From Botryllus schlosseri (taxonomy: Eukaryota): 60,000 nucleotides of DNA. Of the stretch, positions 15,981 through 53,552 are shown piece by piece. Each line of letters opens with the position of its first letter. The first letter of the stretch is position 1. The notes beneath the pieces are model-generated. The model saw only the letters and a program-made list of their open reading frames with translations, was not told the origin of the DNA and ran no database searches. Both the position numbers and the translations under genes were made by a program. The stretch lies in contig CM119371.1 in assembly GCA_051294905.1 (NCBI GenBank), forward strand, positions 12,216,001 to 12,276,000, in the 5' to 3' direction.

Positions 15981-16262
15981 TTGTTTGTTTGTTTGGGGGT
16001 ATTACCGGTGCTTGTCGACTACTATGGTCATTGGTAATTTACACCAGGCCGATATTCTTCTTATTATCCGTAACTGCCGACTTATAACACGGCCCAGCTC
16101 TATGCTTTTTGTAAGGCACCGCTGACGCGGATAGGGAGGCGTGGAGGAGCCTAGGTAAACCTCCAACACTCAGGTATCGGAATTCGGAACTCGACCTCGG
16201 TCGGACTCGAACCCGCACCATTGGTGTTGCAGCCGCGGATTATACCACTGTGCTATCTCGCC
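15981..16262 (-). mobile_element. tRNA-derived SINE (family 1)
   Basis: On the minus strand it begins GGCGAGATAGCACAGTGG (A box) and contains GGTTCGAGTCC (B box), ending in a (CAAA)n tail. A second copy lies at 56865-57147. Confidence 0.85.
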
Positions 16263-18045
16263 ATATTCGATCTTTCTTATTTCAGGCCTCGTCGCAATCT
16301 TCATTCCTACTTTGAATTCGTCCTTGAACGGGTCGGCCTTCGTTGTGAGTCCGATATAAGCTCATCGACGTACGGGAGAATCTCAAATACCACTGACGCT
16401 AATGAACGTGCTCACCCGAGGCCCCCGCTGTCGATGGTGTTGGAATGCAAACGCACCCTCATATATAGTAGCATTTATATAACTAAACAAAACACAATCA
16501 CCCGGGTAATTTGGCTGTGATGTTGAGGTCCGAACGAAGGTGTTTACCTTTCTTCGAGTCGTCTCCATCAGAACCGCGGTCCGAACAATGACATGTCGCA
16601 ATTAGATCACACTTGTCCCATTCCCAAACATCGTTGTGCCAAATCTTGCGGTCGAGGTATTGCTGATATCGCTTATTGTGATTCCTTGAGAAGCCTTTTT
16701 ATAGGACGACCCACGTTCGTTCCAGACTTTTCGTAGAACATCACTTACGCATAGTGGTTAGCGCATAAGAGTTGATATTAACATTCAGCACTTCGGAAGA
16801 GACCGTGGGGTAAGCCTTGGTCGGACTCGGATACTAGGACCCGCAACTCGTTGGTATGGTAGCGGTAAAACGTTTTCTTGCGTTAATTCGCAGTCAGGTT
16901 ACTCGAAGTGCACGGTTGCCGATAACTATTTTTCCATTTCAAACGGTGCCGCGAGGTCAAAAAGGTTGAGAACCGCTGGGTCAAGGAAACACGACCTCTA
17001 CCGCATGGTGCTTTATTCCCACAACTGAATCTTGGGATGATCAGTGAGATGCGTGAGGAAAAAACATTTAGCAACCCCGGTAATATTATAAAATTTACCG
17101 CAAATAAACCGGACGTGACACCCATGTTTGTTTTTCAGGCGTAATAAAATCCAGTAGCAATTTCTATTGAAAATTTGCTTTTCGAACAAAAGTGATACAG
17201 GCCATCGATGACCAACTTAAATGCTAACCTAGAGTTATCTCCCAATGTAGCGTGTTTCGTAAACTGGTGAAGGGTAGAACCCTGATATTCGGTCGGGAGA
17301 TGTCTACATTTTAACTTATAGCAATCGTGGTAGAAATGGTAAATGGTCAGGTAATTAGGAGAGCATAAATAGTTTTAGTAATCTATCCGGGCTACTTTGT
17401 CGATGATGGGATCGCACCGATGTTGTCAACGAAATATCCGACTATGCATTGCAGGTTTAACAACAAGGAATAATCATCATTTCATAATATGTCACATACG
17501 TGTATTTCTCTTACGCAAAGCTTGTGTGGCAAATGCAACATCGTGCTATAGGTTGGCTGTTAAGTAATCAAGTATAAATGTTCGCAAGAGTCTGCCGTAT
17601 ATTGAGATTGCGTACCTGTAGCATACGTCGAATCAATTGTCTGCGCTTAAATAACTGCGTCAACTTGTAACTAGGACCGGACAAAGTCGGATACCGCAGT
17701 GATTTGAAACCGCAACTAGTATTCGAATATCACAAATTATATGTCTTCCTACTAGTTAGGTAAACACGCCATGATCAATTATGTGTATATATTTTGTGAC
17801 CAGTGACCACTGTGAAATATTCATAGTAACATGCCAGCCATATGTTACCCCAAACAGTTTAGAATTCCATAGATAAATCATAGTCTGGATTTGTGACTTG
17901 GAACTTGTGTGGATTTTGAATGCGGTATTTTATGATTTAAGAACTTGATAGCTTTCACGGCTTTTCTAACGTCCACTTACACATGAATATAACCTTGTTT
18001 GCTACACGAGCTTTCGCATCGCAAGTCCTTCATCATGTGTTAAAG

Positions 18046-18516
18046 CAGGGGGGGGGGGACATACGGTCCGCGACGACGTTGTGAGCAGCCCGCAGACAGT
18101 TTCCGGTCTCACGTGATAATGTGGTCATGTCCCATGTCTACATTACATTCGCGAGCAAACGTTTTTTGAACATTAACGAGACAAAGCTGCGTTCCAATCT
18201 AACTGATGTTCACGTGCAATCGTTACTAAGGGTTGCTACGTACGACATGCATCCAGAGTTCAAAGAACGTGTCGACAACTTTGATCTACCACAGATGTCT
18301 CATGACTTCAAAAGCTCCTGAAGCACATTACGGTAATAAATTCATTGGGTGCTTTTTGGTCTCTATGAGTTAAACATGAAGTTCACAATAAATACGAGTT
18401 GTTCCTTGTATATAGATCGATAAATACACGATTAATGTATCCATTTAATAATCCGCCCGCCAAGTAGTTAATTTTCCCATATTAGGCCTACCGACGAGAG
18501 AAGTTGCCCGCCCCTG
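18046..18516 (+). mobile_element. hAT Charlie/Buster deletion derivative retaining the transposase C-terminus
   Basis: Ends CAGGGG.../...TTGCCCGCCCCTG, imperfect TSD TGTTAAAG/TGCTAAAC. ORF 18121-18321 (LNINETKLRSNLTDVHVQSLLRVAT...PQMSH) matches the C-terminal pattern of Buster/GTF2IRD2-type transposases. Confidence 0.8.
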
Positions 18517-18937
18517 TGCTAAACGAAAGTATGGTTCTGTTAGACATTGTACAACGGTTCGTTGTTACTCGAGAGTTTCAAAATAATGCTGTTCGGCTGT
18601 GATAGCAGTCTTGTCCTGCTTACGCTATGAAGCACATTATACTCAAGACCTCATGTCGACTCGCTTCACTGGAAGACTATCATACTCTACCTATACGATT
18701 TCACATTAAATATCTATACAAAATTGGCGTTGATAATGATAACGTCACGGATTTCACGACGCTATGCCTCAATTAGTACGAATTTTATCTATGCGTTTAA
18801 GTCGTTCTATGTTTCCAAGTGAGCCATTGCAGATTTTGGTTCTTTTTGCTCCACGTCGGACTGGATTCGTTATTGATCACTTTGATAACGCCAAGTATCG
18901 ATTCACAGATTACGTTAGATCCATAGAACTCTTAAAT

Positions 18938-19020
18938 ATGGCAAGATCAACGCTGATACTGATGACTGTTTGTCTGATGGCTGTCTTGCTGTGTCATCAC
19001 GGAGTCGAGTCCAGTTGCTC
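18938..19020 (+). CDS. Exon 1 of putative secreted peptide precursor (signal peptide MARSTLILMTVCLMAVLLCHHGVES|SC)
   Basis: ATG at 18938, with a basic n-region, hydrophobic h-region and V-E-S cleavage site. Consensus donor GTAAGT at 19021, phase 2. Confidence 0.75.
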
Positions 19021-19179
19021 GTAAGTGTCGTTACATTATTTTTCCGTTAAGTTGACGTGATTCTACGCCTGGGAATGTAGGGTTGCTCCCGAAATTCAAA
19101 GTAGTCAGCGTTTCTAGGCAAGTGGAAGTAGAAGAAATGGCGAAATTCATACTCAAGTATCATTCAAATTCACAATTTA

Positions 19180-19494
19180 CATGACACACTGGAAAGGAGA
19201 GGACGCAATGTATTATGTCCTTGATGTGTTTGTGCCGTATACACCGACTCACGTTCTATGCATATGCATACCATGAGGGCATGATGTGCATATACCGCTG
19301 GACAAGGAAAGTATAGATGTAGTCTTGTAAGGCTTGCACAACCCCACCATGCTACCCCGGTAATGCTTTGCGCCAAGAGGGAAAGTCATGGATACCAGTG
19401 TTACTGATCAGGTCTTTGGTCTGACCCGGACGGTGATTAAACCCAAGACCTATACTGACCAAGAAGCCGGACGCTTCACCATTACGCTATCTCG
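19180..19494 (-). mobile_element. tRNA-derived SINE with a Meta-like central domain (family 2), in intron 1
   Basis: The minus strand reads CGAGATAGCGTAATGG (A box), a degenerate B box, then GGTCAGACCAAAGAC...ACTGGTATC...CTTTCCCTCTTGGCGCAAAGCATT. A related fragment lies at 37399-37505. Confidence 0.6.
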
Positions 19495-19739
19495 TAGGTT
19501 GAAGTAGTTGAATTACATTGTTATTGACCAAGTCTGCTTGAGATTGGACAGTGTTTTCAGTCTGAAATGTATTTGCCGACTGTCCGTGTTAATACCAACG
19601 TTCTCGCCTAATAAATCATAGAAATATTAAGAATACGATAAGCTTACCCACGCTGCCTATATTTCACGTAAAGACGAAATGAACAACAGTAGAGCCATTC
19701 GCCGTCCAATCCAAATTTAACCCGAGCTTATTTTTTCAG

Positions 19740-19768
19740 GCATTTCGATTGTATATTTCAAGGAAGAA
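19740..19768 (+). CDS. Exon 2 (29 nt; S-HFDCIFQGR) of putative peptide precursor
   Basis: Acceptor TTATTTTTTCAG and donor GTGAGT. Phase 2 in and phase 1 out are compatible with exons 1 and 3. Confidence 0.7.
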
Positions 19769-21832
19769 GTGAGTGACTCTCTACAATCTTCGAACTTAAT
19801 GTTATAGGCGTTTAAAAACTAATATAGATGTTTGTGCCTGGAATTGTGTACCAGAAATTGCAGTGGGACTTGATATGCACCCCGAATTATTTAGCGAATA
19901 TAGCGAATATTTAATATTTCATTTCCACCAGAAAGCGTTGGTGACTTCATACTTTCGCCGCGCGGTACTCATGTGACGTTCTGGACGTAAGGGTATTCCC
20001 ATCTCCCCGTTTCCACTATCTCCATCCTCTAAGTCGTATTTAGAGGAGTGCCTTCTAGGTGGAGGAGATAGAATTTCGTACGTAATAAGATACATTCTAA
20101 CATCAGTCAAAAGCATTGCTGGTTAGGAAAATACCGAGTTGTAAACATATGTCAGCGGTTCTTTACGGCTTCCAAATATTCATTCGTTACCATTTATCAT
20201 CATAATGCGGATTTAAACGTCGCGAAGGAATCATTCACTGTGTTTGCATTGGTTTTATGTCTGCTGTAAGATGGATAAAATTCCCGTGTCTCACTGACGC
20301 ACATATAATACCGTAGACCAAACATATATATTGGCTATGTTAAGAGTAGGCATATAAGAGTCGTGTGCACCTTTCAATACATGACAGTAAACACATTGTC
20401 ACGTTTTATAGTCGTAGAATCGATGTTTTTTTAGTGCGTTGGGAAATGTTCTTTCGACAACAATAACCACGTCCTAATATTATATACGACAATTTTGGAA
20501 AATCTATAACTTGGACGACCATGGACGAAGCAAATTGTCACAGGATCTTAGGAACTTATAACAAGTCGTTGGAAGATGGTAAAATATCCGAAGTCACGTT
20601 TCCGACCCTAATGGCCCATCATTCGCATCCCGTATTGTCGGACTTCAAAGGGACTTTTCACCGTCCTTTGTGGTTTTGCAGAACGGAACGCAAATATCAT
20701 TGACGGAGGGGTCGCATCATGCATAGCCATCCCTGACACTGCACAGAATATCATCTTATGATCACGCCATATTCCATTCCCTGGTCAATCACCCGTCCGT
20801 GTAATTATAGCGCAACTAGGCCTAATCTACTTGAATATTACGGTAAATTGGGCGTACTATTTTGCTTCCACCTATGGCAAGCAAGTCGCTTTGTCATTCA
20901 CAACCGGAATAGCGTGATACTTGAATCACATCTTTGAAGTATCAGTGTAATACATGACGATACAAAATTTACCTTGCGTTGATTTGTATCTTTTGCTACA
21001 GCCTTGATGCAGCTAGTAATTTTGATCACGTGGTTGTTGCGACTCTAGAAATTGTCCATGACTTCGATACGTTTACAGTTGTAGAGAATATCTATACCAG
21101 TTGTGTCAAACTCAACTTGTGTCGTGGGCCAGATTCAAACCTTCCGATCGCTTGCGGGTCGCACCAGTAAAATGATTCCAAAATATTGCCTCAAAACTCA
21201 TGCCATTGTTTCAATTTGAATACTTTATTATCAAGCCTATCACTTAATATAGTAGGCATGTATCACATTATATAACGGATTACAGGGGTCCTATTCTAGC
21301 TACACTTTTATTTGGAAGCAATGGAATATGGTGAATACGATGACAAGGGGGTTTAATACAGTTATAAATGGCTAAAACTGAGGCTCTTACGGTGATATAA
21401 ATTGTTAAATTTCGATGCACCCTTTGATTTAGTCGTATACTGGCGTCAGCCCTGCGTGTGCGTTTTGAGTAATACAAGAGTTGCCCCATATATTTGAATT
21501 GTATTTCCGCATAAATATATTAAATTCTTCATGTAACCTGCATATAAAGATTTCGCAATGGCGCTTTCGATTCTGTGAATAACTAGTTTAGGGGATCTTT
21601 TTCCATAAAACTCTAAGCGCTGCATGGACTTTTTTGCCTTCTCCAAATTGGGTATCAACGTCAACGACTTGCTCCTAGTGGTGACTAAAGTGAAATCACA
21701 ACACCACTGTCGGATGGTTATGGTCTATCAACATAAACATAGCCTAATTTACATTTGCTGTCGTGAGGAATTATTGAACGGAAGTAGTTCTTACTAAAAG
21801 TACCATTACTAGCTGTTAGGAATATGCTAGAT

Positions 21833-23375
21833 CAGGGGTCACCAACACGCGGCCCGCGAGGTCATATTTTGCGGCCCGCGGCCCGATTTGGAGAAATTTC
21901 GGAAGAACGCTCAGCGAACCATTTCGAAATGCCGAAATTGATTTCAGTTTAAAAATATTGTTGTTGTTGTTCAAAGTAAGCCATTCTACTGCGCCCAATA
22001 TCACTATTCCGTCGGTTCGGCATGGTAATATCATTCTATGGAGGAATAATTTGCTGATATGAATGCGCATATTGCCTTGGCGTGAAATGGCCAACCACTG
22101 CCAAGACCGGGAGGCTTGATAAACGACATCGGGCTCTACAAGAGACCATGCTTTACAAGTAGATAGTGTTCCAGCAAATAGGCTACCTTGTCTACAACTA
22201 ACCCCAATATCGCTTCTTTATTCCTGGGGCGGCCAATCTACGGCAGTAGAAGAAAAATTATGCGGGCGTCGACACTCAATTCAATTAGGACGTGTTCGCG
22301 GCTATCAATATTATGCTAATTGAATTTACGAATTGACTCCCTAATTAATGAAAGGCTTGAATTATTCTTGAAATTTTCTTCGCGAGTTGATTTTTGATAT
22401 TAATATAGCAGTGTCCATTGTAATCTGAGTCCCACAGTACAGATGCGAACAGCAGAGAAAAATTATGCGCCCCCTAAAGAAATACCAATTTTTAATCGTG
22501 TTCTCCTCATCCCGAATTAATTTTCTTTCTGGTAGGCCTGCGTTTGGGCGAATCCAATATATTTCCACTATAACGACAATTCTAATGGGAGGCCAAGAAA
22601 TAACTGCATGCAACATAAGAGACTAATGAGGATTGGCCCACCCAAAGATGCACCACAGCATTAATAATAATAAATAATAATAAATAGGTTTTGGAAGACA
22701 CCCCCTGCATAAACTCTACCGGTGAATCTGACCAAATGGGCCGAGAAAGGATGAATTTTTGATATTAATATGTGAAACAATACCAATAATACAATGAAGA
22801 AATCCACTCATGAACATGAAAATTTTTTCGCGCTTCGCGCAACTACAGTATCCGAATCCCTGTTGCTCATCTTCACTACATATTCACGATCTCGGTGCCC
22901 ATAGTAAGCCGGTATGAGTAAATAGATTTGTCAGGAGTGTACCAGCAATGGACATGGTGAGTTTAACGTAGATATTTGGCCCCAGCTTCTCTATTACTAT
23001 GCACCGGAATGCGGCCGCGGGCTACATGAATAATCGAAACGCGGCCGTGAATACCAAAAAGGTTGGCCACCCCTGTTTTGGTTGCTACAGAATGTCGTCA
23101 GGTATCGTGCGCAGCTCATTGTTCAAAATATAATGAAATTGATGAGCATGATATTTTTTTTGTATTTGTGTTTTTTCAATAAAATATTATTCATTTTGTG
23201 GTGACTATGCCCATCGCCCATGTAAGAGAACACAGCATTGTACTTACGTAGAGTTATCACACATGATTGATAAGTTGCGTTGGCTATGTTAATCTCGATA
23301 TTGAAGTCATGCGGCTCGCGGCCTCTAGGAATTTTGAAAAGTGGCCCGCGACCCATTTTGAGTTGGCGACCCCTG
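21833..23375. mobile_element. hAT MITE with perfect 8-bp TSD, containing a nested MITE (~22223-23075), in intron 2
   Basis: TIRs CAGGGGTCACCAAC / GTTGGCGACCCCTG, with TSD TGCTAGAT on both sides. It is probably itself inside an older element at ~21098-23482. Confidence 0.9.
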
Positions 23376-24288
23376 TGCTAGATAATATATTCATGTTTTA
23401 ATTTCCTCAAATTGCTTCGCGGCCTGTATGAAACCGTCAGGCGAGCCGGATGCGGCCCGCAGGCCATATGTTTGACAACCGCGACACCACCTATTGCAAG
23501 TGGGAAATATACATGCTCGCATACCAAAGACCAAATAAGCATGGACTGGACGTTATCTACATCCTTACCATTGGTCGTAACCACGAAATGGGGCGAGAGC
23601 GACATCTTGCGACATTATTATTATCGTTGCCATGAAAGTCGTTGTAAAGTCGTCACTCGTCATCACAAGGGCTCGCCAAAACCAAGTACCTGACTGATTT
23701 TATTCCGAATCGTTATGCTTCAAGTCGATCATTCGCTTCTTATCACTAATCTTGACGTCATGATATCACAATTGACCTGGAACGTTCAATTATGCACCAT
23801 TTATTCGACCACAAGGAAAATAATATCAATTTGTTGGTAGCCTATTTAATAAACAGAAACTAGGTGCTTGTAGCCGGTTGGTCTTTTGCACCACGGTGAA
23901 CGATTGCGTACCAAAAAATGCACCCCGATCAATAGTAAGAAAATGAATAATGCCAAATACACACGTAAAACATACCTATTTCGTAGCACTGAGGATATAT
24001 CAACTGTTAACTGCGTAGCATTATGCTATGAGTTTTGGATTCTGTGATGCAACCGAACTAAGTTGGTGGGTACGAAGGTATCAAAACTATGCGTGATCAA
24101 GAAAGGCCTGCTCGAAAGAATGGTTCCCGCCAACCGACTCGATTCATTTCTCGGTTGGAACTAGAGAATACCTCGATTCCTTGTGAGACCCCCCTATATA
24201 ATTATCACACGCACCACAGCCAAATTCCCGCGCGAGCTGTTATCAATAGACGAATGCTTGGTTTGAAACGACTGTTTTCTTTTCGCAG

Positions 24289-24491
24289 ATTTCATCGGCC
24301 GACCACGGAATCCGCCAAAATATAAACCACAAAATGAAAAGAAGTCGGATTGGGATGAAGAAGTCATTGCTGCTCTTGCGGATGACAACATGCCTATTTA
24401 CAAGCAGGATGAATTCTTAGCGCCATGGCAGTCGGGAATAACAAATCCGAAATTCAAAAGTTACCAAAACGATTACCGGAATATCGATTGA
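24289..24491 (+). CDS. Exon 3 (terminal) of putative peptide precursor: NFIGRPRNPPKYKPQNEKKSDWDEEVIAALADD...YRNID*
   Basis: Strong acceptor TGTTTTCTTTTCGCAG, open in the required phase to TGA at 24489-24491. The spliced CDS is 315 nt (104 aa). Confidence 0.7.
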
Positions 24492-24663
24492 ATTTAAAAG
24501 CCTTAATGTCTTTCTTCTAATCTGCATCTTCTCCCGACCGGACGTGTTTGTTCGTATGTGTTGAGCTGGAATCGTTGTGAAATATATATGCTGGTTTGTG
24601 CCGATGACACCGCCTTGTTAGTCGCGTACAATGGTGGAGATTTCAGGTTAGATCTGTATTTAG

Positions 24664-26121
24664 CAATGTTGGGATCAAGTCACTACGTTCGAGTCACGAG
24701 TCATCTCGTCATTGGACGTTTAGACTCGAGTCCAGCAGTCAAGTCACTCGATTTTCGAAGGTGACTCGAGTGAAGTCAAGTCACTCGATTTTTGATGGTG
24801 ACTCGAGTCAAGTTCAGTCAAGTCAAGTCCCGGGTCAAGTCACAATTAAAGTCAAATTGATTTTTTTAAGTAAGAGGGATGATCAAAATTCGTTACATTT
24901 TGCTAGCTGTGTTACAGGCAGGGATGCAACCAAGTCACAAGGTTGCGAGTCACGAGTCAAACTCCCTTTTATAGTTTTTACTCGAGTCAGGTCGAGTCAT
25001 TTTCAATTCACCACCAAGTCAAGTCCGAATCCAAGTCACGGAGTAGAGTGTCGAGTGCGAGTCATAGTGTTTTGACTAGAGTCCGAGTCCAAGTCATTGT
25101 GTTGACCGTTCAGTTCCGGTTAATGTCATGTAAAACGCACTTTATACAACTCTGCTACGGGATATCGAATGCTTTCCATTCATAATATTCTAATTTTTCT
25201 CATTTTAAACAATTTCTGGTAGCATTTACAAGTACCAGTACTGATAGACGAAATAATAATAGTGTCATAACTCTACTATTCTTCGAAATTACATTGAAAT
25301 GCCTGTTTTGGTAGACCCAGTCTCGAGTCATATGACTTGTTCCGAGTCATGCGCAATGACTTGAGTACAAGTCGAGTCAATACACAAATTGACTCGAGTC
25401 GAGTCGAGTCATTTTTCATTTTTAAGAAAATGACTCAAGTTAATGCGAGTCACCAAAATCGCGACTCGAGTCATTACAACCCTGGTTAAAGGCATATTAA
25501 CTTGCCATTTATCTAAAATCATATAACGAATATAAAGTTAACTAAATATGCAAAAAGGTGTTTGTTGTCACGCACACGTAGCACTGCTAATAAAATAGGT
25601 GATTAACTGTATGCTAAGTCTGTTATTATCAGCCATAATAGAGGATCGAATACGAAGCCTAGAGAAGTTGAAACAAATTAATATGGTCTAATACACTGCC
25701 TATCTACATATCCGTGAGAATATAGACGCATACACTATATTTGTTCGATTTAAATCGTACAAGAGGGTTGGTAAAGGTGAGCACTGAATCGACTAAGAAA
25801 CAGAGATACGTTGCTATCAGACTAATCTACTACTGCTAAGGTAACGTAAACTGTAATTATTTTGTTTTCGGTCAATTTATTTGTGATGTAACAATGGAGG
25901 ATCAGTGAAACTTACAAACAGTGAATGACTGGTTCCTCTCACAAGTGACACCTGCGTATCGCGAACAATCCGAAAGTACATACGATACAGTGATCCAATC
26001 GACACCGTTTACTTGATGACTTGAATTTTGCTCCGAATCACGAGTCAACCCCATTTCTGAAGCGCCGTGTCAAGTCAAGTCAAGTCATACGAAGAAGTTG
26101 ACTCGAGTCATCCCCACACTG
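24664..26121. mobile_element. hAT (Ac-type) non-autonomous element with GACTCGAGTC-rich ends, hosting a nested element
   Basis: Ends CAATGTTGGGAT / ATCCCCACACTG, imperfect TSD GTATTTAG/GCGTTTAG. A related left end lies at 56549. Confidence 0.7.
24919..25484. mobile_element. hAT MITE (CAGGGTTG family) nested in 24664-26121
   Basis: Ends CAGGGATGCAA / TTACAACCCTG, TSD GTTACAGG/GTTAAAGG. Colinear with 30282-31384. Confidence 0.85.
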
Positions 26122-26819
26122 GCGTTTAGACGATGATAAACATTTTTGATGCTCGCAGTTTGAGCCTTATGGATATCAGAATTAGGAGAGGATAGCGATG
26201 TCGCCGATACAATATATTCTAGAAGAAATAGTCAAAATTTTCTGCCGATATCAAAATGTCACATATTACAACTAGACCTTTTAATTAATTAGTTGCGGTG
26301 ATTTGAAACTGATGTCTTATATAATCTTCATATTCATGCAGCAAAACTCCAGCTGAGTGCAAAAATATAGCAGCCTACATACAATTCCAAATACATGTAG
26401 TTAAGGACACAATATTCACAGCGTTTTCACCTATAAGTGAACTTTTATTGTATTGTGTATGGTGCTCATAAACCAGTCCAGTCGCACTGATGACCATGAC
26501 CATATCACTTTCAAACAATTGTGAGGTTGACGACCGGAGTTGCCCCATCCCGATATTTTCATGAAGACACATATCCCGAAATATCGGTCGGAATCTAGTT
26601 ACTGCCGCACCGATTCCAAAATATATGATTTCGCCGTTGACGTTCAATGTACTTGGTCATTTATTATAGGGTTTATTACTCCATAGAGCTGTGGCAACTG
26701 TAAGTATGGTGCAAACCCCTTAAAGGCTCTGTTGAACGAGAACCTTTTGAAAGGATCTATCTATGACTCAGGGGCGGGCAACATATATATTTAGTTTTTC
26801 ATATTATATTGATCACTCA

Positions 26820-27240
26820 GGACCCCTTTTGAATTGGTATCGTAAATATTGTGACCTGTGTGAATGCTAGTAATTTTGCAGGCATAGTGAATCGACTATA
26901 GAGAATAAATATCACAGAAGTACTCGGTTATGTAGCGGGTAGAAATTTGGTCTCCAACATCGTTTTCAATTCGGATGTGAATCTTGCTCTTTGATTGCTA
27001 AAGAGTCGATTCTGCATGTTTTGTGACTTCTGCTTCACCATAAAGACCAAAGTCAATCGTTTTCTAAGGTTAATTCGAGTCTATAAATATTCAGTTACCA
27101 TATTCAGTTACCATATTCAGTTACCATATTCGGTTGCCATATTAAGTTACCATACTCCATGTCTAAGCCAAAAGATTTTGGTTTGCATTGGCCAAAATAC
27201 CCGGAGGTGGTCGGTAACGAAGTACTCGAGTAGTTTTCGT
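26820..27240 (+). repeat. Dispersed repeat (TE internal segment), second copy ~45638-46005; contains a 13-bp tandem expansion
   Basis: By-eye colinearity. ATATTCAGTTACC occurs about 5 times at ~27087-27153 but once in the other copy. Confidence 0.8.
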
Positions 27241-29042: not shown

Positions 29043-30281
29043 TATATCTACATATACAGGGCCTTTTTAGAGGGTGGACTATATAGAATATTTGGGTAGT
29101 GGGGAATGAAGACTCGGAGTAAACCTGAAGTGGGGAATGAAGACAAAAAGGTTGGTAACCACTGCCCTAAATGGTATTCCCTTTGATGGTACGAGACGGT
29201 CGTTTCGGAGTTAGGTCAGACTTATCAGTTACCCGATTTTGATATGATATCAAAAATATTTCAAGTTACATTCGGAACGAACCAGCTATATAGATATCTT
29301 GGTACATATCAGTTTCATTCTTTTTCTTGAGCCATTGTTTCCGTCTAGTGTACGCAATGACAGCCAATGATTATTCCCATATATGTGGTGGATTGACATG
29401 ATTATCTTAGATAGAGAGTTCTTATGCCTACCATACCGTCCAGTATAGTCGCCATTGTCTCAGACAATTTTACAATAGCCTTGGTATTACCGATGACTAT
29501 ATGACTTGAAACTATAGGTTTTATTGCACCAACTTGACTCCTTCGGTCGTGAAATGCCTTAAAATCAATAAAAGAAGGCATACCGTTCATTCATCGGAAA
29601 TTAAAGTAATGTTAGCATATTGCTTTCAATTAAATAATTAAACAAAAGGGCATAATAAAACAGGAAACAAAAGAATATCAAGATAATCCGTTTTGGGCCC
29701 TTGTTAAGCGCCTCCAGCGTGGGCGGTCGTGGGCGTCTTCGAGCGAAAGCCCGCGTTGCGCTAGTTTGGTCTCTATTGTCTAGCGCCATGTGGGTCTATT
29801 CCAGCCACCTCTGCGCCATGGCTCCGTCAGAATGTGGTTGATGATGGCGGCGGCTGGTTGATCGTCTTGATGCCGCACTAGGTGACCGATTAGGCGGAAG
29901 CGTCGTTCAGCAGCCAGCAAACGACATGGGACCGTTTTTGTATGTTTGCGCAGAGCATTGGGGGATATGTGCTCCGGGAGGTGGATGCCGATTGCGTAGC
30001 GGAGGATTGCATCGTAGTTGGCGTTACGTGTCTTAGCCAGCTTTTTTGTCAGCGTGAGTGCTTCTATTCCGTAGAGAAGAATCTGCTCGACAGTGGCACG
30101 GAAAATGCGGGTCTCGAGCTGGAGTGAGGCACTTGAGTGGAAGAGGCAATGTAGCCGTCTTGCTGCGCCCCAGGCATTTGCTCGCCTCGCCTTTAGTGCT
30201 TTTCCAGAGTCCGCGACGTCAACACCGAGGTATATAAAACTCTTGACATTCTTGAGCCTGACTTCTTCCAGTTGAATTGGT

Positions 30282-31384
30282 CAGGGTTGTAACCAAGTCA
30301 CAAGGCTCCGAGTCACAAGTCAATTTCACTTTTATAGTTTTGACTCGAGTCAAGTCGAGTCATTTGAATTCACCACCGAGTCAAGTCCGAGTTCAAGTCA
30401 GCGAGCAGAGGGTCGAGTCCGAGTCATGGAATTATGACTCGAGTCCGAGTCCAAGTCATTGTATAGACTGCTCAGCTCCAGTTAAAGTCTTGGTAAACCC
30501 ACTTTTTATAACTCTGTTTGGTGATATCGAATGTTTCGCATTTATAATATACCAATTTTCCTCACTTTTAGCAGTTTCTGGTCGCATATTCAAGTACCAG
30601 TACCAACAGACGAAATCCCAAGTGTGTTGGCTTCGGAATTACAATGAAATGTCTGCCTTGGCCGTCTGAGTCTCGAGTAGGGCTGGGCAAAATCGAGTAC
30701 CTGAGTGATTCGATTCTGAATCACGTATTATGCTTCGAGTCGAGTCGAGTATTCGAGCATCGTTCAATATGACGTCATAACAGAATGAAGTATATCAAAG
30801 TTCAGATATTAACTTTTATTCCAGAACAAAGAATATAATGCCTATTATCCATCAAATTAAAGAGACTTTGGTATTTTTCGACCATACCAATTTCATTGCA
30901 CTTCGTGACAAGTTTATGAGATGATTATGACTTCTGAAATGTGTTATTTCATGTAACGTTGGTAGCTTCGTGCTATGTTTCGTATGCTTCGATGCGGCCA
31001 ATCAGGGTTCTAAGCCTTCCACAGTGGAAAATAGTATCAAGACTATAATTCTCAGTGATTAATTAACTTTTAGTGACGAGGAGCGTGTAATTTCAGTACT
31101 CAAAAATATCGTCTTTTACTACTCGACTCGAATCAGTAAAATTAATACTCGATTCAGATTCGAGTACTCGAATCATTGTGCCCAGCCCTAGTCTCGAGTC
31201 AATGACTTGGTTCGAGTCATGCGCAATGACTCGAGTCCAAGTCGAGTCAATACACAGATTGACTGGAGTCGAGTCGAGTCATTTTCGTATTTTGAAAAAA
31301 TGACTCGAATCAAGTCGAGTCATCAGAAAATCGTGACTCGAGTCGGACTCGAGTCGAGTCATGACTCGAGTCATTACAACCGTG
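30282..31384. mobile_element. hAT MITE (CAGGGTTG family) inserted in the RTE LINE
   Basis: Ends CAGGGTTGTAA / TTACAACCGTG, perfect TSD GAATTGGT, subterminal GACTCGAGTC arrays. Confidence 0.92.
30678..31190. mobile_element. hAT MITE nested in 30282-31384
   Basis: 12-bp TIR TAGGGCTGGGCA / TGCCCAGCCCTA, perfect TSD GTCTCGAG. Confidence 0.93.
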
Positions 31385-33014: not shown

Positions 33015-36000
33015 CTCTAGTGTCTAGTTGGTTGATGAGGCGCTGTGCCGATGCGGTATTCGGGGCAAGCAAGGCGAGATCGTCTGGGTAGGCAAAAATA
33101 CTCACGTGGATAGCCTCGGGAGTCGTACGCGTACGGTACGCGTTCCTTGCCGTGGCCGCCATCCAAAGAAGTCCGAGTTGTCCGGAAAGGCCGTTCGTAG
33201 CACGAAGTCAAGGATTATCACGAACAAGAATGGTGCCAAGTTGTCACCTTGAAGTACGCCAGCCGAAGTGGTAAAATCTCCGCTTGGACCGTCATCTGTT
33301 CGGACTCGCGCTCGTGTGTCAATGTAGAGGGCCATAATGGCGTTCCTGATCACCTCAGGAATTACATAGAATCTGAGGATCTTCGCCATGGCTGGGTACG
33401 AGACCGAGTCGAAGGCTTTTGCTAAGTCAACAAATACAGCCACAGCATTATTTTTATGTGAGCGGCAGGTGTCAATGATTGTACGCAGTGCCAGGATATG
33501 CTCTGTTGTACGGCGGGATGGTCGAAATCCATTCTGGACACAGTCTGTTTGGCAGTTTGGCGCCACAAATAGCATGATCTACTACAGAAGGTTGATGTCA
33601 CGTTTCCAAGTGCGTCCAAACGTGTGTCCAAGTGCTAAACGTCCAATCAGGCTATACTCGGTCATTTGAAAAATGAAGCATTTCCGTTATATTCATTGTT
33701 ATATATATATGTAATATATGTAAGTTCGATAAGGTTCGATATTTTTACTATTACTATTCCCTGGAATTTTGTGAGTCACCTCATGCATTCATTCTACTAA
33801 CATTCTCAGTAGGCTACACATGAGCTTCAATTGCTTTGTTTATATAATTTTATATGAGATTAAATTTCGTCATTTTCATACCTTTTTATTGCGTTGTAAT
33901 TATTGCTTCATTACAATTACATTGCTTCATTCACAATTAAATGGCTCTGTATGAAGCTATAATCCGCAACACCCTGATGAATAGTCTTCTTAACCGTGTG
34001 GCATGAATATGACTTAAGTAATATGAATAATTACTAGGGATGGTGTGAACCTCTGAAAGGTTCAGGTTCGTGTGAACGTGAACACTTTTGAAATGTTCTG
34101 TGTAACGCGAACGTTAACCTCATGACGTCACGTGACGTCGCACTGCTAATTCCGACCCTATATTTCAGTGAAGTGATTTGTACACGATACCTAGCGACGA
34201 CTCTCGCCACATATCCAATGTCACAATGCTGATGTACATACTCACTTTTTAAACGTCGCTAAATATATCAAGTGGAGCAATCAAATGATATATTAATCTC
34301 ATAAAATCAATATCTTCCGTCGCTTCGCCAACAATTTCGACAAGGAGATGCGAGGGAATAATAGCTTACACGTTAACGGTCTAGGCCAGACCGGACAATG
34401 TACTCGACGTCTGTGTGTTGCTACGTTGATATTGAGCAGAATGTAAAACGGGATTTACCCCAGTATGCGAAATTCAGTTACTTTCCCGAATTTCATTTGC
34501 CAGATAGATATCACCTAATATATTAAGAAGGGAGGCCGCTACTTGTTCTGGTAATTAGGGCTGTGAGCCAAAAATATCAACATCTCGTTTCAACTGTTCC
34601 GGAAAGATTTTTCATGATATCACCGAATTTAGTTCATTTTTGATTATTTTTTATTTAATTTAAACTAGATTACATGTTATCTGAACAGCCTGTATCAACT
34701 GTTTTAGTAAGTCTGTCTGCACTGAAAGCACAAGAATATGCGAAAAGTACACCGAAGCTGTGCTGCATAAAATTATTCTTTTCCGCAGATCCAACACAAA
34801 AATCTCTCATTTATTGGTTTTTCCATCGTAATCTTTCATGTTGCAATGCCTGACACTAAATTTCATCTACTTATAAATGTGATTAAAGTGAACAATAAAT
34901 AGCAGTTAGCCTATATTCGGCAATAACAAACATAGTATGCCTGAGCCTACAAAGAGATGACGATTTGTAGACACCAACGAAATGCAATATTGTTGTTTAC
35001 CAAGAAGCGGTGAAAGATGTGCAGGATTTGCCTAACTGAAGTTCATAGATACAACTCTGATTATTTACTCAAATTAGCCTTAAGTCATTTGCAGGACAGT
35101 TTTCTATTACTCCTTTGACTAGGCAGTGGCCGTAATCTGCCAATAATCAATAATCGTCAGATTATATTTTATCTGAACAAGACACACAATTAACAATACA
35201 ATAAGACACAATTCGATGTAATGAACAAATAGGACGATGCCGAAAGACCAGTTACGGTTACGGTTTTCTAAACTGGCACCCACCTCAGCCGAGGTGGCCG
35301 ACATAGTTCCTTTAACGATTGTAGTCTCTATTCCGCGGCTCCATTTTGCTCGTTCCATTCGTCGCTCATTTATTGGGTCCGTTTCTGGGCTTGCTTTGTC
35401 GCCGTAAAAACATCGACGCTGGGAAAAAGGTGCCCGCCCAGAATAACCTGAAGCGCGAACCCAGGCCGCCAGGCGGTAGTCGCTTATCGTCACCACTACG
35501 CTATCTCCTCCGACATCATGCAAGGATTCCAGCTATCTCGATATATCTCTTCCATTTAGTGGCTATATAGGTGACGCCTTCCACCTCGTTCATAGACTCA
35601 TATTTCCGAGGTTATCAGGGAAGCGATGATAGTGAATGTTTATGCTCATGCTTATCCATGATCCAAAAAATTTCGTTAGCATCATTTTGACGCGATTTAT
35701 CTGGTTGCTTGCTTCTGTCATTCCAACCCAGGTCGTTGTTTAGCTAATCCCGAGTAAAAAGCGTTGGTTTACTGTGTATTCGTGACAATGTTGAGGAGTC
35801 GGTGTCATTGCAGTTGCTACAGCATCTACTATTGTCAACTTCATTTTTCATGACATCCTATATCGCAGCATCATTCGAACTCAAATCTGTCAGTGACGTA
35901 ACGCTGCCACTAGAATTTAAGGCGAGTGTACATTTGGTAATAAAGCAGAAGCAACGCTGGGTTAATGCTTCGACTTCTTTTTTTGGATCCAACCTGGCAT

Positions 36001-37505: not shown

Positions 37506-37834
37506 GCCTAGATGACATTACTAAAGGTATCGCGTCTTGTGTCGCATCTCCTTCGCCAAAGCATATCGGTAGTGCAGGTGATTGGGAATACAATATTTCG
37601 AGCAAATTTAGGAGCAACGCACTGTTGCAAAATTTGTACCTGTACCGTCAATAAATATTTGCTGTTTAATAATGTCAGCCTTTGCAGTTCTCTGCTATCT
37701 CGCAGAATTTACTTAAAAAACAAACAGTGACATACGCTGACATACATTAAATTGATGTTGTTGGCTTAACTCGTTCCATGGCCTAAAGCTCGCAGGACAA
37801 ATGTTTTTCCGTAGTAGTCAACTGTTGTATGGAG

Positions 37835-39888
37835 CAGGGTTGGAATGACTCGAGTCATGACTCGACTCGAGTCAGACTCGAGTCACGATTTTTTTATGAC
37901 TCGACTTGACTCGAGTCATTTTCTTGAAATAGGAAAATGACTCGACTCGACTCGAGTCAATATTTGGATTGACTCGACTTGTACTCGAGTCGTTACGCAT
38001 GACTCGACCCAAGTCATTGACTCGGCTTATTTTATATGACTTGAAGATGAAGAAATTTGCGAATCATAATGGCTAGATCAACGCATCCGACGAATTCTGC
38101 CGACATCGCTATTTGTCACCACTGCTTTCGTTGCACTTGTCTGATATATCAGATATGCCGCCGTAAAAACAACAGAAAATGATACATAGTAGCAATGCAT
38201 TGTACAAAATCGTCCAGTGATAAAGAGGTAATAGATCCTCCGCAATTAAAGTACTCAAGACTTTTCAATTATACAAGCAAACAATTGAATCAAAGTTCAA
38301 TTAGAGCCAATGAAATGACTCAGATGGTGAAGAGACTGATAAGCTCATGTGTAGATTTGAAGGCGATGATTCTTTGCATTTTTATGCGACTAGAAAGAAT
38401 GAGTATTCAATGCTCTTCAGTGTGGTTCAAAAATGCTTGTCAATTCCTGCATCTAGTGCACCAGTGGAACGTGTATTCAGTAGATGTGGATTCATTCTAC
38501 GGCCATGCCGCTTTAACACATTTGAGGTTCTCCTTTCCACATTAGTATTTTTGAGGTGTAACTCATTGATTTGATCTGCTGTCTGTGAAAACACACAATG
38601 CCCTTCGTTCATTTGACGTTTTGTTAGGTATGTGCATTGTGCACGTGAGTAATAATGAATGGCTAATGTTGTGTGATGTTTGTACAATATGGCTGTTCTA
38701 AAATAACTTCTTTTTTATTTTACTTGGTGGTTACATGATAAAATTGTTATGTTGCATAAAAGGAACAATGAATCTGGCTTAATTTGAAAAAAGTGGAATC
38801 AATTATCTGAGAGGAGAATATTCTGGATTTGAAAATAAATGGAGTATTTTAGTGAGAAATTCTTTCATATGATATAATTACATAGTAGTAAGCCGACTAT
38901 TTTTTCATATCCAAAACATTCTAATCTAATAACTTCACTTTTTCTAGTTGGAATTGAGTCAAATTTGCTATGAATCATATTTTTACACAATGTAACAATA
39001 TCATGAGATAGCCGGTAAAATTCGAAAATCTCTATTTGTAATTAGTCTAAAATTTTCTTTCATAGCATTGCTTTCTACTGGTTGGAATTGAGCCAAATTT
39101 GATTTTTAGGCAATCTAGCAATTTTAAGAAGTAGCCAGAAAATTTGAAAAAATGTTTTTGAACAGCCCCATTGTACAATTATTTCTCCAATGCTGTAACT
39201 GCGATGTAGTCGGTAATGCAATTGGGAAAACCTTTAGTATAATCAAAAGGTATCTGTTCTGTTGTCACTGCACAATGCACATAGTTGCATGCACGATTTT
39301 ACAGCATGCTGGCCTGTTGTAAATACCTCTACATAAACATGCATCTATTGATTCTCTATCAACTAGTATCTTGACGTGAATTTGTTGGTTCTCTATCAGA
39401 TGGTATGTAGACGTGAATTCGTTGGTTCTCTATCAGCTATTCGTGAGCTATCGTCGATGTGTTCATAATAAAAACTGAATGCTTGTATTGGTGATGTATC
39501 AGACTGACAAGAGAGATATTTGATTTTAAGTTCTAAGATTAGTAAAGTTATCTTTAGCATCGGTAAATGAGGCCAGGACCTGTCCGTTATCTGCCTAAAT
39601 AAACACGTGCCAAGACTCTGATAGGGACAAAATGAGCATGTTTCGCAAACAGGGAATTCGATATCACCCAAGCAGGATTGAAAACATGAGTTGAACATGA
39701 CTTCAATACTGTGACTTGGACTCGACTCGAGTCATAACACAATGACTCGGACTTGACCCTTTAATCGGTGACTTGGACTCGGACTCGAGTCTGTGATGAA
39801 TTGAAAATGACTCGACTCGACTCGAGTCAAAACCACAAAAGTATGATTGACTCGTGACTCGGAACCATGTGACTTGGTTACAACCCTG
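37835..39888 (+). mobile_element. hAT (Ac-type) deletion derivative with a transposase dimerisation-domain remnant
   Basis: TIR CAGGGTTG/CAACCCTG, perfect TSD GTATGGAG, empty site in the duplicate (~55997 GTATTGAG), and GACTCGAGTC subterminal arrays. Confidence 0.93.
38347..38574 (+). pseudogene. hAT transposase C-terminal dimerisation domain fragment
   Basis: LSIPASSAPVERVFSRCGFILRPCR...LVFLRCN is the hAT dimerisation motif. Confidence 0.88.
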
Positions 39889-49547: not shown

Positions 49548-49759
49548 GACTATATTAAACCATATGATAATTATATGTGGTATATTCAGGGTCAAATCAA
49601 GGTATTTATAGCAACAATCGGGCACGGTCCCATATCCTGTGGTTCGAACCATCCCGAATTCACATCTGCGATTAGCAACAATCTTGGAGTATTTGGTTGT
49701 ATTAAGCTTTAAAGTAATCTAGGCTATAATCTAGGCTATATACCCATCCAAGAAACAAA

Positions 49760-50590
49760 ATGACAAAGCCCGGAACAAACGAAGAAGTCATCTTGCTGAG
49801 ACTGAAAAAGATGGAGAGTAAACTGGATAATACGCTCGCTGAAGTCAAAGTGTTAAAGGAAGAAAACAAGGAACTGCGCAACATCATCTCAGAACTGCAG
49901 ACTACAGTTGAAGATATCAAAAAGTCTGGTTCTGCCGTAGAAGAACTGCGAAAAGAGATAGAATCTTGCAAGTCTGGTATGGAATTCATGAATGCAGAAT
50001 TTGAGGACACCAAGAAAAAACTAGAACGCGCCTCACAAGAATCCATGCTCAACGAACACGACAAATTTGAGTCAACTATGAGATTCCTGAGCAAAAAAAT
50101 ATCTGACCTAGAACGCACCAACGACAACGTGGAGCAGCAATCTCGAAACAACAACCTGGAATTTCATGGTGTTCCCCACTCCGAAAAAGAAAATCTGCCT
50201 GAAACCATCATGAAAATAGCTAACGCCTTGAAAGCTGAGATTACTGCGCCACAGATTGTGCAGTGTTATAGAGTGCGCTTCAGAAATAAGGACAAAACAG
50301 GACCCGTTATAGCCAAATTCTCTTCAGAGCAACCAAAAAAAGAATTCCTCAAAGTGAAAAAGGCCAAAAGGGATATCAAGGAGTTTGGTGTAGATGGAAT
50401 GAAACAACTCTTCATAAACGAAAATTTAACAAATTACAGAAGAGATGTTCTCTTTGAAGCGCGAGCTGCGAAACAAAAGAAAAGCTTCAAATACCTCTGG
50501 ACTGCAAATGGAAATATCTACATGAAAAAGAATGATGGTGCACCCAGAATCCACATTGAGTCAAAGGATGACCTCGATAAACTCAAATAG
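49760..50590 (+). CDS. LINE ORF1 protein (coiled coil + RRM-like + C-terminal domain)
   Basis: 276 aa, with a heptad-rich N-half and the motifs RNNNLEFHGVP, FINENLT and KYLWTANGNIYMKK typical of CR1/L2-group ORF1. Confidence 0.88.
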   Translation: MTKPGTNEEVILLRLKKMESKLDNTLAEVKVLKEENKELRNIISELQTTVEDIKKSGSAVEELRKEIESCKSGMEFMNAEFEDTKKKLERASQESMLNEHDKFESTMRFLSKKISDLERTNDNVEQQSRNNNLEFHGVPHSEKENLPETIMKIANALKAEITAPQIVQCYRVRFRNKDKTGPVIAKFSSEQPKKEFLKVKKAKRDIKEFGVDGMKQLFINENLTNYRRDVLFEARAAKQKKSFKYLWTANGNIYMKKNDGAPRIHIESKDDLDKLK

Positions 50591-50637
50591 AAACTGCTAT
50601 ACTGCTCTCTCACTGCAAACGCAACCCACACTAAAAA

Positions 50638-53552
50638 ATGGCTCAAAACTTTTTCAACGTGAGCAACTGCAGATCTATCAATTCAACGAATAGTAGTGAT
50701 ATCCCCTCATCTCAAGGAATTTTACTTGCACACTTAAACACAAGATCCCTCCAAGCTCATCTAGATGAAATTCCCCCCTGTTTGAAATGTTCAATTGCTC
50801 ACCAACCCTCATCGGAATCTCTGAGACCAAGTTGAAAGAACATCCAACGACTAATGTTAACCTGACAGGTTTCAACTTTTTACACTCGCCATCTAAAACG
50901 AACGCTGGAGGTGTTGGACTATACATCAACGAAGGTCTAAGATATGACATGATGCCCGAAGTAAAATTTGAAACCGAAGGCGTAGAATATATATTTGTCA
51001 GAGTACATGTACAAAAAGCTCTCACAGTGGCAGTCATCTACAAACACCCAGGAACAAAACAAGAGACTTTTCTTGACGAATTCTCAAATATTCTGGAAAC
51101 GCTAACGGCAGCTAACGAACAAATATTTATTATGGGAGATATAAATATTGATTTGCTGAAGACCACCAACTTTACCACAAGGTACCGTGAAATGCTCGAT
51201 TCTTATGGAATAGCTCAGATAATTACCGAACCCACAAGAATAACTGATCAATCCAAAACTCTACTAGATCACTTCTACTGCAACACTCATCAATATCACC
51301 TGTCCCCTTTTGTGCTCCAACACAGTATGACTGATCACTATCCCATCATCTGTCACATGAAATTGGCCCTGCCACATTGTGCTAAAGAATTTGAATCTAG
51401 AACGCCCTTAAACCCACGCGGTATAGAGGAGTATATTGAAATTGTCAGCAATACCTTCAACAACTACAAAATTCCTCCACTCACAACTGACAACTACAAC
51501 TGCCATTTTGAAAAATTTATTGAGGAACTGCGGGCAGCCCTCGACACATCTTTCCCAATTAGGAAAGTCAACCGCAATGCAAGGCGCTTGAAATCGAAAC
51601 CCTGGATTGGTTATGACATACTAGTTGCGATCAAAACAAGGGATTGGATGCATAAGCACTACTATCTGCAAGGCACCATCGAAGGCAAAAAAGTGTACAA
51701 AAAATATGCAAACCAAGTGACGCATATGAAAGAAAATGCCAAAAAAGCGTACTTCCAAAAAAGATTCGAAGAGTGCTCCAAAGATCCCAAGAACACATGG
51801 AAAACCGTTGGAGAAATTATCAACCTAACTAAAGGTAATGCTCCCAAGAGTACTGATGACATCCAGCTACTCGAGAATGGCAGCGTTATCAAAGACCAGC
51901 TTGCAGTAGCAGAAAAGTTCAATCAGTATTTTTGCAACATTGGTCCGGATCTTGCAGCTTCAATACCAAACTCCTCCGATGACTTTCTCTCGTACTTGAG
52001 TCCTGGCCCTCAGAAATCCATTTTTCTTGAGCCGACGAGCAAAGGAGAAGTTGCGATCGTATTATCTGAAATGAAAAGTAACAAAGCAGTAGGACCCGAT
52101 CTCATCCCAACTCACTTTCTGAAGCTAGTCTTTAGTATTATTGGTGATGTTATATGCATTTTCTTTAATGAGTCGATACGTCTAGGCATTTTCCCAGATG
52201 CATTGAGAACTGCCAGAGTAATGCCAGTGTTTAAGAAAGGCTGTAAAAAGCTAATTTCTAACTACCGACCAATATCTGTTTTGCCAAATCTTGCCACGGT
52301 TTTTGAGAAACTGATTGACTGCCGACTTAAGAACTTTTTTGAATTGAATGCAGTACTGTCTCCGACTCAGCATGGATTCAGATCCAACCACAACACCAAC
52401 CATGCAATACTATCAATTGTAACGGACTATTACAAAACCATCAAGCAAAAAGAAAGTGGCTGCAGCATTTTTATCGATCTCCGCAAAGCTTTCGACACTG
52501 TTAACCACAGAATCTTAAGATACAAGCTAGAACACTATGGGATCAGGGGTGTTGCAGCAACTCTACTTGAAAGCTACCTGGCAAACCGCAAACAATTTGT
52601 TAAACTGGGGACATTAAGAACGACTACCAGAGATATAACTTGTGGAGTGCCACAAGGCTCAGTCCTTGGACCGACTTTTTTCCTCATTTATATTAACGAC
52701 ATTGTTAATGCATCTTTATTCCGCACAACGCTATTTGCTGATGATACTCACCTCTTCATAACCTCCAACACTGTCGATGATTTGCATGCATCTGTGAATA
52801 GGGAACTCCCAAAAGTGTCGAGATGGCTGCAAGGAAACAAACTAAGTTTGAATGCAGATAAGACCGAGATGCTCGTTTTAAATAATGCCAGTCATAATTT
52901 CACCGTGAACATTAATCATAAACAAATCTCAATATGTGACTCAGCAAAATATCTCGGCGTCACCATTGATGCCAAAATGTCTTGGAAGCAGCATATTGAA
53001 TGCACAATATCAAAAATAGCTCGGTGTGTGGGAATAATGACCCGTCTCCAATCTTTGGTTTCCAGATCAGTACTACGAACCATCTACTTCTCTCTTTTCC
53101 ACTCGCATCTGCAATATGGAATCGTAGTATGGGGAAATGCTTGTACAACATTTTTGTGCAGAATTCGAACCCTGCAAAACCGTGCGATACGGCTGATCTC
53201 ATCTGTACCTTTACGTACCAATTTATCGCCTTACTACCGTAAGCATCGAATTTTGCGAGTTGATGAACTGTATCGCTTCGAAGTATCAAAAGTTGTTCAC
53301 AAATATTTTTCCAATAGTCTCCCTCCTGTGTTTGATGACTTTTTCATACCTGCTAAACATGTCCATTCCCATTACACGAGATCTTCGTCTAAAGGAAACG
53401 TCTACTTACCCCAACCCAATAGCAACCTAACTAAGAGATCTATCGACTACTCGGGACCTATCATCTGGAATGCATTACCATCACATATCCGTGAATTGCC
53501 TTATAATAGATTCAAAAAAGCCCTACTTGATCACCTCTTGTCGTTACACTAA
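50638..53552 (+). CDS. LINE ORF2 apurinic-like endonuclease-reverse transcriptase, with one -1 frameshift at ~50773-50778
   Basis: APE motifs HLNTRSL (upstream frame), ISET, GGVGLY, GDINID, LDHFY and TDHYPI. RT motifs YRPISVL, QHGFR, FIDLRKAFDTV, GVPQGSVLGP, FADD and YLGV. The 921-aa part (50787-53552) is uninterrupted. Confidence 0.93.

Follow-up and report, generated by a model that had tools for sequence, protein, structure and literature searches.

Does the segment between positions 18938 and 24491 of a 60,000-nucleotide stretch of the Botryllus schlosseri genome (contig CM119371.1, positions 12,216,001 to 12,276,000 of the forward strand; hereafter the window, to which all coordinates refer) hide a gene for a small secreted precursor and, if it does, what kind of peptide would be released from it? 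The first-pass annotation of this DNA, which was made from the letters alone, proposed a three-exon gene for a new antimicrobial peptide or neuropeptide. The evidence presented below establishes that the three-exon gene is real, spliced and transcribed. With regard to its function, it most likely encodes a precursor that is cut to a cationic, proline-rich host-defence peptide and that follows the signal-cationic-anionic layout of ascidian precursors, a reading to which a probability of about 0.42 is assigned. Published work is cited by PubMed Central (PMC) number.

The three coding exons, the last of which spans 24289-24491, join into a coding sequence of 315 nucleotides with a single stop codon and 104 amino acids, and both the joined sequence and the RNA junctions bear out the splice sites, phases and coordinates originally proposed. 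None of the exons appears in the list of open reading frames of at least 100 codons, in keeping with the remark that the gene is invisible in that track. Four public RNA runs were mapped onto positions 16000-27000, namely X1 (a contig), X6 and X10 (bulk) and X4 (single-cell). The junction 19020 to 19740 was found in three of the four runs (the X1 contig; 63 reads with 47 starts in X6; 18 reads with 17 starts in X10; none in X4), and the junction 19768 to 24289 in all four (the X1 contig; 77 reads with 52 starts in X6; 18 reads with 17 starts in X10; two reads in X4), so that the RNA check suggested for the two junctions gave a positive answer. Skipping the micro-exon in silico produces a frame that stops after 39 codons; among the 15 joints listed, out of 121 in the RNA reads, none skips this exon, none leads from either donor to an alternative site and none carries exon 1 into another long protein, an outcome that had been named as contrary to the gene.

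Expression, as estimated from exon depth, amounts to some 31-38 reads per million for X6 and to 8-9 for X10. In X4 the first mates over exon 3 are all on the minus strand (73 against 0 at position 24449), which fits RNA of the plus strand if the second mate is the sense one. Upstream of position 18936 the RNA depth adds up to the equivalent of about 26 nucleotides at full exon depth in X6 and 13 in X10, and the X1 contig, of 272 nucleotides, leaves 107 nucleotides for exon 1 and hence a start at about 18914 if it is contiguous. The 5' end is thus placed approximately near 18910, downstream of the in-frame ATG codons at 18791 and 18809; no stop codon interrupts the reading frame for 50 codons or more upstream, and an N-terminal extension from either of these codons was rejected because the read depth there is too low. 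At the opposite end the depth in X6 falls from 90 at 24508 to 28 at 24666, which sets the 3' end between 24508 and approximately 24660. No canonical AATAAA lies between the stop codon and a repeat near 24665, and AATATA is present at 24581.

The combination of an ATG, a hydrophobic stretch and a nearby GTRAG donor occurs in only two places on the two strands of the window; one of them is exon 1 and the other, at 12606 on the minus strand, is outside the interval onto which reads were mapped. At 38069-38084 (plus strand) 15 of 16 bases equal the start of exon 1 and open a 37-codon frame, but the alignment scored below shuffled controls and the match is likely due to chance. As for variation within the gene, the variants listed include at least six in the coding sequence, namely E24Q, Q52R, N53T and three silent ones, with no indel and none in exon 2. 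An allele that carries both Q52R and N53T is found in three of the four runs. Two of the three listed amino-acid changes fall in the cationic tail, and residues 54-104 show no listed amino-acid change but two silent variants.

The first 25 residues of the product form a predicted signal peptide, as had been proposed: the 11-residue Kyte-Doolittle mean reaches 2.88, against no more than 0.73 after residue 25, and the (-3,-1) rule is satisfied by a cut after residue 25, as well as after 19, 27 or 28. Hydropathy and this rule are the basis on which the 104-residue product is predicted to be secreted. The signal is followed, in this order, by the pair C27-x4-C32, Gly36-Arg37, a segment in which four residues are proline and five are basic, the dibasic Lys55-Lys56, an acidic stretch and a tail. 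Both cysteines of the ring noticed by the first-pass annotation are present, although a cut after residue 27 or 28 would leave only one of them, and a cut after 25 is the one that keeps the pair. Similarly, its count of seven Lys or Arg against two Asp or Glu is correct but includes Lys55-Lys56; residues 26-54, which exclude that pair, have a net charge of only +3 and are 24% hydrophobic, while residues 26-57 have a net charge of +5. The switch of charge is sharp, with six Asp or Glu and no Lys or Arg in residues 57-75, and residues 80-104 are near neutral and rich in aromatic residues. A single-sequence structure model of exon 3 is weak and uninformative (predicted local distance difference test, pLDDT, 60; predicted template modelling score, pTM, 0.13), with no helix of four or more residues, no strand and no sign of a folded domain.

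The layout of a signal followed by a cationic and then an anionic part, which had been likened to that of ascidian antimicrobial precursors, is real, and the comparison can be extended to the border between the two charged parts. Under the cationic filter of PMC7387483, in an implementation of our own (18-residue window, net charge +3 to +10, hydrophobicity 0-0.6, moment 0.1-1.0), 4 of 62 windows pass (starts 33-36), with a net charge of +5, and the anionic filter is passed by the windows that start at residues 51-57 (net -3 to -6). The border carries the motif basic-x2-W-D-E at residues 56-61, with W59 three residues after the dibasic pair; the motif is contained in 1.6% of 200,000 shuffles. 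Aligned without gaps, residues 59-70 share 6 of 12 positions with the anionic helix of Ci-META4, with chance estimates of 5e-4 (shuffled propeptide) and 9e-3 (acidic stretch alone) before correction for some 20 table entries. The comparisons with Ci-META4, ghrelin and motilin were scored as short patterns, and their odds are rough and post hoc.

Of the 22 antimicrobial candidates of Ciona, 17 carry an anionic C-terminal helix (PMC7387483). A count by eye in Table 1 of that paper finds W-N-E/Q in 11 of the 22 entries, in 10 of which it stands where the cationic part gives way to the anionic one (two of these being near-identical copies of Ci-META4); the pattern is our own reading of the table and is not named by the authors in the sections consulted. 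For CiEMa, a peptide of Ciona blood cells, a cut between Trp and Asn has been put forward (PMC10888236), and cleavage before Asp has been reported for the styelins and clavanins (PMC7387483). The likeness to Ci-META4 is given more weight than the other short matches described below because the motif is a recurring one in a tunicate, stands in the expected position and belongs to a hypothesis that was stated beforehand.

If the host-defence reading is right, the signal would be removed after residue 25 and Cys27 would pair with Cys32, while the acidic stretch (residues 58-79) would shield the cationic part for as long as the precursor is stored. A cut at the basic/acidic border would then free a cationic, proline-rich peptide of 29-34 residues with a predicted disulfide ring. 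Prohormone convertases cut at Lys-Lys pairs, and release could take place in this manner at Lys55-Lys56; alternatively, the cut could fall within the acidic part, either ahead of Asp58 or between Trp59 and Asp60, in the way reported for styelins, clavanins and CiEMa. The released product would have a net charge of +3 to +5, and one more in the Arg52 allele. Since the peptide combines a high proline content with weak charge and poor amphipathicity, its action would be expected to consist of binding to microbial surfaces, a non-lytic route or an immune signal similar to CiEMa, and not to be that of a membrane-lysing helix; it would most likely be a peptide of blood cells or epithelia. Were the signal cut after residue 27 or 28, the single cysteine left might permit a covalent dimer of the halocidin type. 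A supposed resemblance of the last residues of the signal to halocidin was set aside, since these residues would be lost when the signal is removed.

Several observations weigh against this host-defence reading. Two cysteines follow the signal, where the criterion of the helical family is none, and every window that passes the cationic filter contains three or four prolines and one or two glycines. The 24% hydrophobicity and net charge of +3 of residues 26-54 compare with a charge of +11.2 for botryllin and of +4 to +12 for the Ciona peptides that have been tested. W-D-E occurs in no entry of the PMC7387483 table, all of which have Asn, and the same paper finds no basic processing motifs at the border, where the Botryllus protein has a site of neuroendocrine type. 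Within the window there is no paralogue or tandem copy of the gene (self-BLAST and alignment), and no match to the NF-kB consensus lies within 13 kb upstream (the whole window holds three matches against 3.8 expected). The variants are too few for their pattern to carry weight (three silent ones of six, P = 0.10). Lastly, three unrelated families also match short stretches of the protein, two of them at similar post hoc odds; matches that are mutually incompatible reveal how prone such short motifs are to false positives, and this caps the confidence that can be placed in the likeness to Ci-META4.

It is unlikely, though a serious proposition, that the gene encodes a lineage-specific neuropeptide or hormone precursor, cut at Lys55-Lys56 or at Arg37 (with Gly36 as the amide donor) into a disulfide-ringed ligand of a G-protein-coupled receptor, the acidic part being a spacer. 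The position of the ring directly behind the signal, the end of exon 2 after Gly-Arg, the classic site at Lys55-Lys56, the single copy in the window, the moderate expression and the weak charge would all suit such a hormone, as would the wealth of lineage-specific neuropeptides in Ciona that lack homologues, but no match was found by eye to the 18 Ciona-specific peptides of Table S1 in PMC8936170. Nor are there repeated peptide cassettes, and this reading would leave unexplained why W-D-E...ALAD resembles the anionic helices in precursors from Ciona blood cells.

The length of ring and tail is that of oxytocin and vasopressin, in which the signal is followed by a ring, three residues and then Gly with basic residues, comparable to C27-x4-C32 and the three residues before Gly36-Arg37 here (PMC11616451); the Botryllus sequence differs in one extra residue at the front, in the lack of a second basic residue and in a Ser, and no aromatic residue, at ring position 2. 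Only two cysteines follow the signal and exon 3 has no Pfam match, which leaves no neurophysin. Vasopressin precursors require this cysteine-rich domain, and a kinship with the vasopressin type, raised by the first-pass annotation, was set aside because it is missing. The same happened to the resemblance to CGRP and amylin. The N-terminal ring would be held in common with calcitonin, CGRP and amylin (PMC6283891) if residue 25 is the last one removed with the signal, but the sequence after the ring is proline-rich where a helix is needed (Gly36, Gly41, Pro43, Pro46, Pro47, Pro51), and Glu54 stands before Lys55-Lys56, hence no Gly is available as an amide donor. A third resemblance concerns neuromedin U, whose C-terminus F-x-x-R-P-R-N agrees with residues 39-45 at five of seven positions (post hoc chance 0.002). 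The C-terminus of neuromedin U is amidated; in the Botryllus protein the motif is internal and is followed by Pro-Pro-Lys instead of an amide donor, and neuromedin U/S was rejected.

Another explanation, which appears improbable, is that of a small secreted protein that functions for the most part without being cut, for example in the tunic, in mucus or in adhesion, its basic and acidic patches serving to bind and its dibasic site and motifs being incidental. No cleavage has been observed, and the tail at residues 80-104, near neutral, aromatic-rich and with only a silent variant among those listed, is odd for a pro-piece to be thrown away; moreover, only 22 of the 252 predicted secreted Ciona proteins of 50-100 residues passed the antimicrobial screen (PMC7387483). 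Nonetheless, a sharp switch from basic to acidic, with Lys55-Lys56 and a Trp motif placed exactly where the two meet, is what processed precursors look like, and the exon 3 model, weak as it is, offers no hint of a folded domain.

The last of the named alternatives is a remote membership of the ghrelin/motilin family. On this view the signal would be followed by a peptide of some 30 residues with a Pro/Lys-rich tail, a basic cleavage site, an acidic spacer and an obestatin-like motif; the product, which would also carry a disulfide-ringed N-terminus and the internal motif like neuromedin U, would be the ligand of a tunicate Ghsr-like receptor. Avian proghrelin, with a signal of 23 residues, a peptide of 26-28 and a C-peptide of 65 that contains obestatin, matches in segment sizes, and by eye five of the nine residues at 80-88 equal those with which obestatin begins, in the form F-x-A-P-aromatic-x-x-G-I (PMC2925213, PMC6533539, PMC11616451, the last of which gives the obestatin sequence), with a chance of 0.008 anywhere and 0.0008 near the expected register, both post hoc and uncorrected. 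Counted by eye from the predicted cut, 4 of 28 residues equal those of human ghrelin, among them Ser3 and Pro21-Pro22; in addition, the neuromedin U receptor belongs to the same clade and a Ciona gene has been named Ghsr-like. This membership is nevertheless highly improbable: the active N-terminal motif is absent (one of seven conserved residues of ghrelin, Ser3, and one of six of motilin, by eye) and two cysteines are present; ghrelin and motilin genes have four coding exons, with the peptide over two and obestatin in an exon of its own, whereas the Botryllus gene has three, with the peptide over all three and the obestatin-like motif in exon 3 together with the peptide tail; six stretches of exon 3 gave no Pfam match at E<=10 (HMMER filters hide weak matches) and no obestatin chain was returned from the PDB; and the motif was chosen after the fact from many families. 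Readings other than these four share a similarly slight chance. The protein thus belongs to none of four families, those of CGRP, vasopressin, neuromedin U and ghrelin/motilin, since for each of them a defining feature was tested and is lacking.

Searches for relatives were made with exon 3 alone as the query (66 of the 104 residues), to which exon 1 was added against Pfam, and they agree with the earlier statement that no named family can be recognised, since none returned a credible homologue. In a set of 5.8 billion proteins there was no candidate of 36-116 residues and none at 117-2000 residues (0 of the 4 candidates scored). Two matches in a set of 1.84 billion (E 4e-8 and 3e-7; 3261 and 1072 residues, with 5-6 weak stretches) are unrelated repeat-bearing proteins, and the top feature matches of the ESM Atlas (0.92), to small phage or primase-like clusters, were rejected as inconsistent. 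A Pfam match of GRP to the signal in exon 1 is below threshold (E 0.1), and the single PDB match (E 0.76), a ribosomal protein, was likewise rejected. None of 300 pattern matches in metagenome contigs was confirmed, five 8-residue stretches had no occurrence in the literature searched (bioRxiv supplements and most subscription papers lie outside that search), and six 10-nucleotide words were absent from the probe tables of the 2026 Botryllus atlas. Exon 3 therefore has no detected relatives in these searches, and the gene is apparently undescribed.

The window is otherwise repeat-rich and gene-poor, with one long interspersed nuclear element (LINE) that looks intact, broken pieces of reverse transcriptase and many short dispersed repeats. 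The second open reading frame (ORF2) of the LINE encodes 927 residues with an endonuclease and a reverse transcriptase, and a copy of its first (ORF1) that is 92% identical is present in another contig, so that the family looks young. The repeat in intron 1 of the gene reaches an RNA depth above 2600 at 19294 in X6 and has loose ends with tRNA-like boxes that suggest a short interspersed nuclear element; ARAGORN and Rfam returned nothing for it, and a bacterial promoter scan gave nothing useful either. Broken frames like a reverse transcriptase, of RTE type by eye, lie at 29780-30280 and 33102-33578 on the minus strand, with short inverted-repeat elements between them, and a frame at 38183-38545 (plus strand) resembles by eye a degenerate dimerisation region of a hAT transposase. 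An abundant dispersed element of short palindromic units occurs at 24665-25470, 30282-31384, 37724-38024 and 39703-39900; the first of these copies begins just 3' of the end of the gene, where the canonical polyadenylation signal was not found. The coordinates of the gene and of the LINE are collected in Table 1.

Table 1. Parts of the three-exon gene, in order along the transcript, and the LINE of the same window.
Feature	Coordinates	Strand	Description
5' untranslated stretch (approximate)	18910..18937	+	placed by RNA depth
Exon 1, coding part	18938..19020	+	83 nucleotides; predicted signal peptide (residues 1-25) and residues 26-28, including Cys27; donor GTAAGT confirmed by reads
Intron 1	19021..19739	+	719 nucleotides, GT..AG, phase 2; contains a high-copy repeat at about 19250-19492
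Exon 2 (micro-exon)	19740..19768	+	29 nucleotides; residues 29-37 with Cys32 and Gly36-Arg37; donor GTGAGT; both flanking junctions in reads
Intron 2	19769..24288	+	4520 nucleotides, GT..AG, phase 1; repeat fragments, self-BLAST repeats at 22422-23065
Exon 3, first part	24289..24347	+	Pro/Arg/Lys-rich segment (residues 38-54), then dibasic Lys55-Lys56
Exon 3, acidic stretch	24348..24413	+	residues 58-79; opens with W59-D60-E61 and holds A66-L67-A68-D69; likely pro-region
Exon 3, C-terminal tail and stop	24414..24491	+	residues 80-104; 80-88 weakly like the start of obestatin
3' untranslated region (approximate)	24492..24650	+	placed by RNA depth
LINE, intact-looking	49730..53552	+	ORF1 of 276 residues from Met, coiled coil and baculovirus FP domain (PF25298, E 3e-13); ORF2 as described in the text

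If the host-defence reading is true, the gene would represent a new architecture among ascidian defence peptides, a small disulfide ring with a Pro/Arg-rich tail, given that the ones described in the papers cited are mostly cysteine-free helices. Moreover, the Trp-Asn/Asp-Glu/Gln border, which roughly half of the Ciona candidates share, may be a place where ascidian precursors in general are processed. The weight of such a finding is tempered by the many orphan secreted peptides that tunicates carry. The likeness to ghrelin and motilin, if it were true, would place a gut-hormone family before the vertebrates, while the papers cited here on these peptides trace them only within vertebrates (PMC2925213, PMC6533539, PMC11616451).

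How does the predicted peptide compare with those already known from ascidians? Of the features of the linear cationic alpha-helical peptides it has the predicted signal peptide, the cationic window and the anionic pro-region, and it lacks the cysteine-free mature part (owing to Cys27 and Cys32) and the amphipathic helix. A helical membership of the type of the styelins and clavanins, which the first-pass annotation had named for their layout, was consequently not borne out, in view of the cysteines, the prolines and the weak charge, although the layout stands and gains the W-D-E...ALAD border; membership of the linear helical family is not supported, and it is the layout alone that is likened. 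The styelins, clavanins and botryllin of styelid ascidians (PMC9966394, PMC10817596) are, in the same way, small secreted precursors with a cationic peptide before an acidic extension, but the 104-residue protein has no KHK motif, unlike this group. Botryllin differs further in its 158 residues and its largely helical peptide of 37 residues and +11.2, and identity with botryllin is excluded by the absence of its three printed epitopes.

Closer in arrangement are the Ciona precursors Ci-META4 (KH.C14.152/KH.C14.235), Ci-MAM and the KH.S921 group (PMC7387483), which share the signal-cationic-anionic order and a Trp motif at the border, W-N-E/Q in Ciona and W-D-E in Botryllus. The Botryllus protein departs from them in its two cysteines, its proline-rich, non-helical cationic part, its weaker charge, its dibasic site, an extra near-neutral tail of 25 residues and its total of 104. 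CiEMa (PMC10888236) is also an orphan secreted precursor, and its proposed Trp-Asn-Glu cleavage point resembles Trp59-Asp60-Glu61; on the other hand, its 14-residue peptide has no sequence match here, and the 104-residue protein lacks the downstream Gly-Asp amidation site. Finally, halocidin and dicynthaurin (PMC10817596) show that cationic ascidian peptides may contain cysteine, and would become relevant if a single cysteine remained after removal of the signal; halocidin consists of chains of 15 and 18 residues joined by one disulfide bond, whereas the Botryllus peptide would be longer and proline-rich and would probably keep two cysteines.

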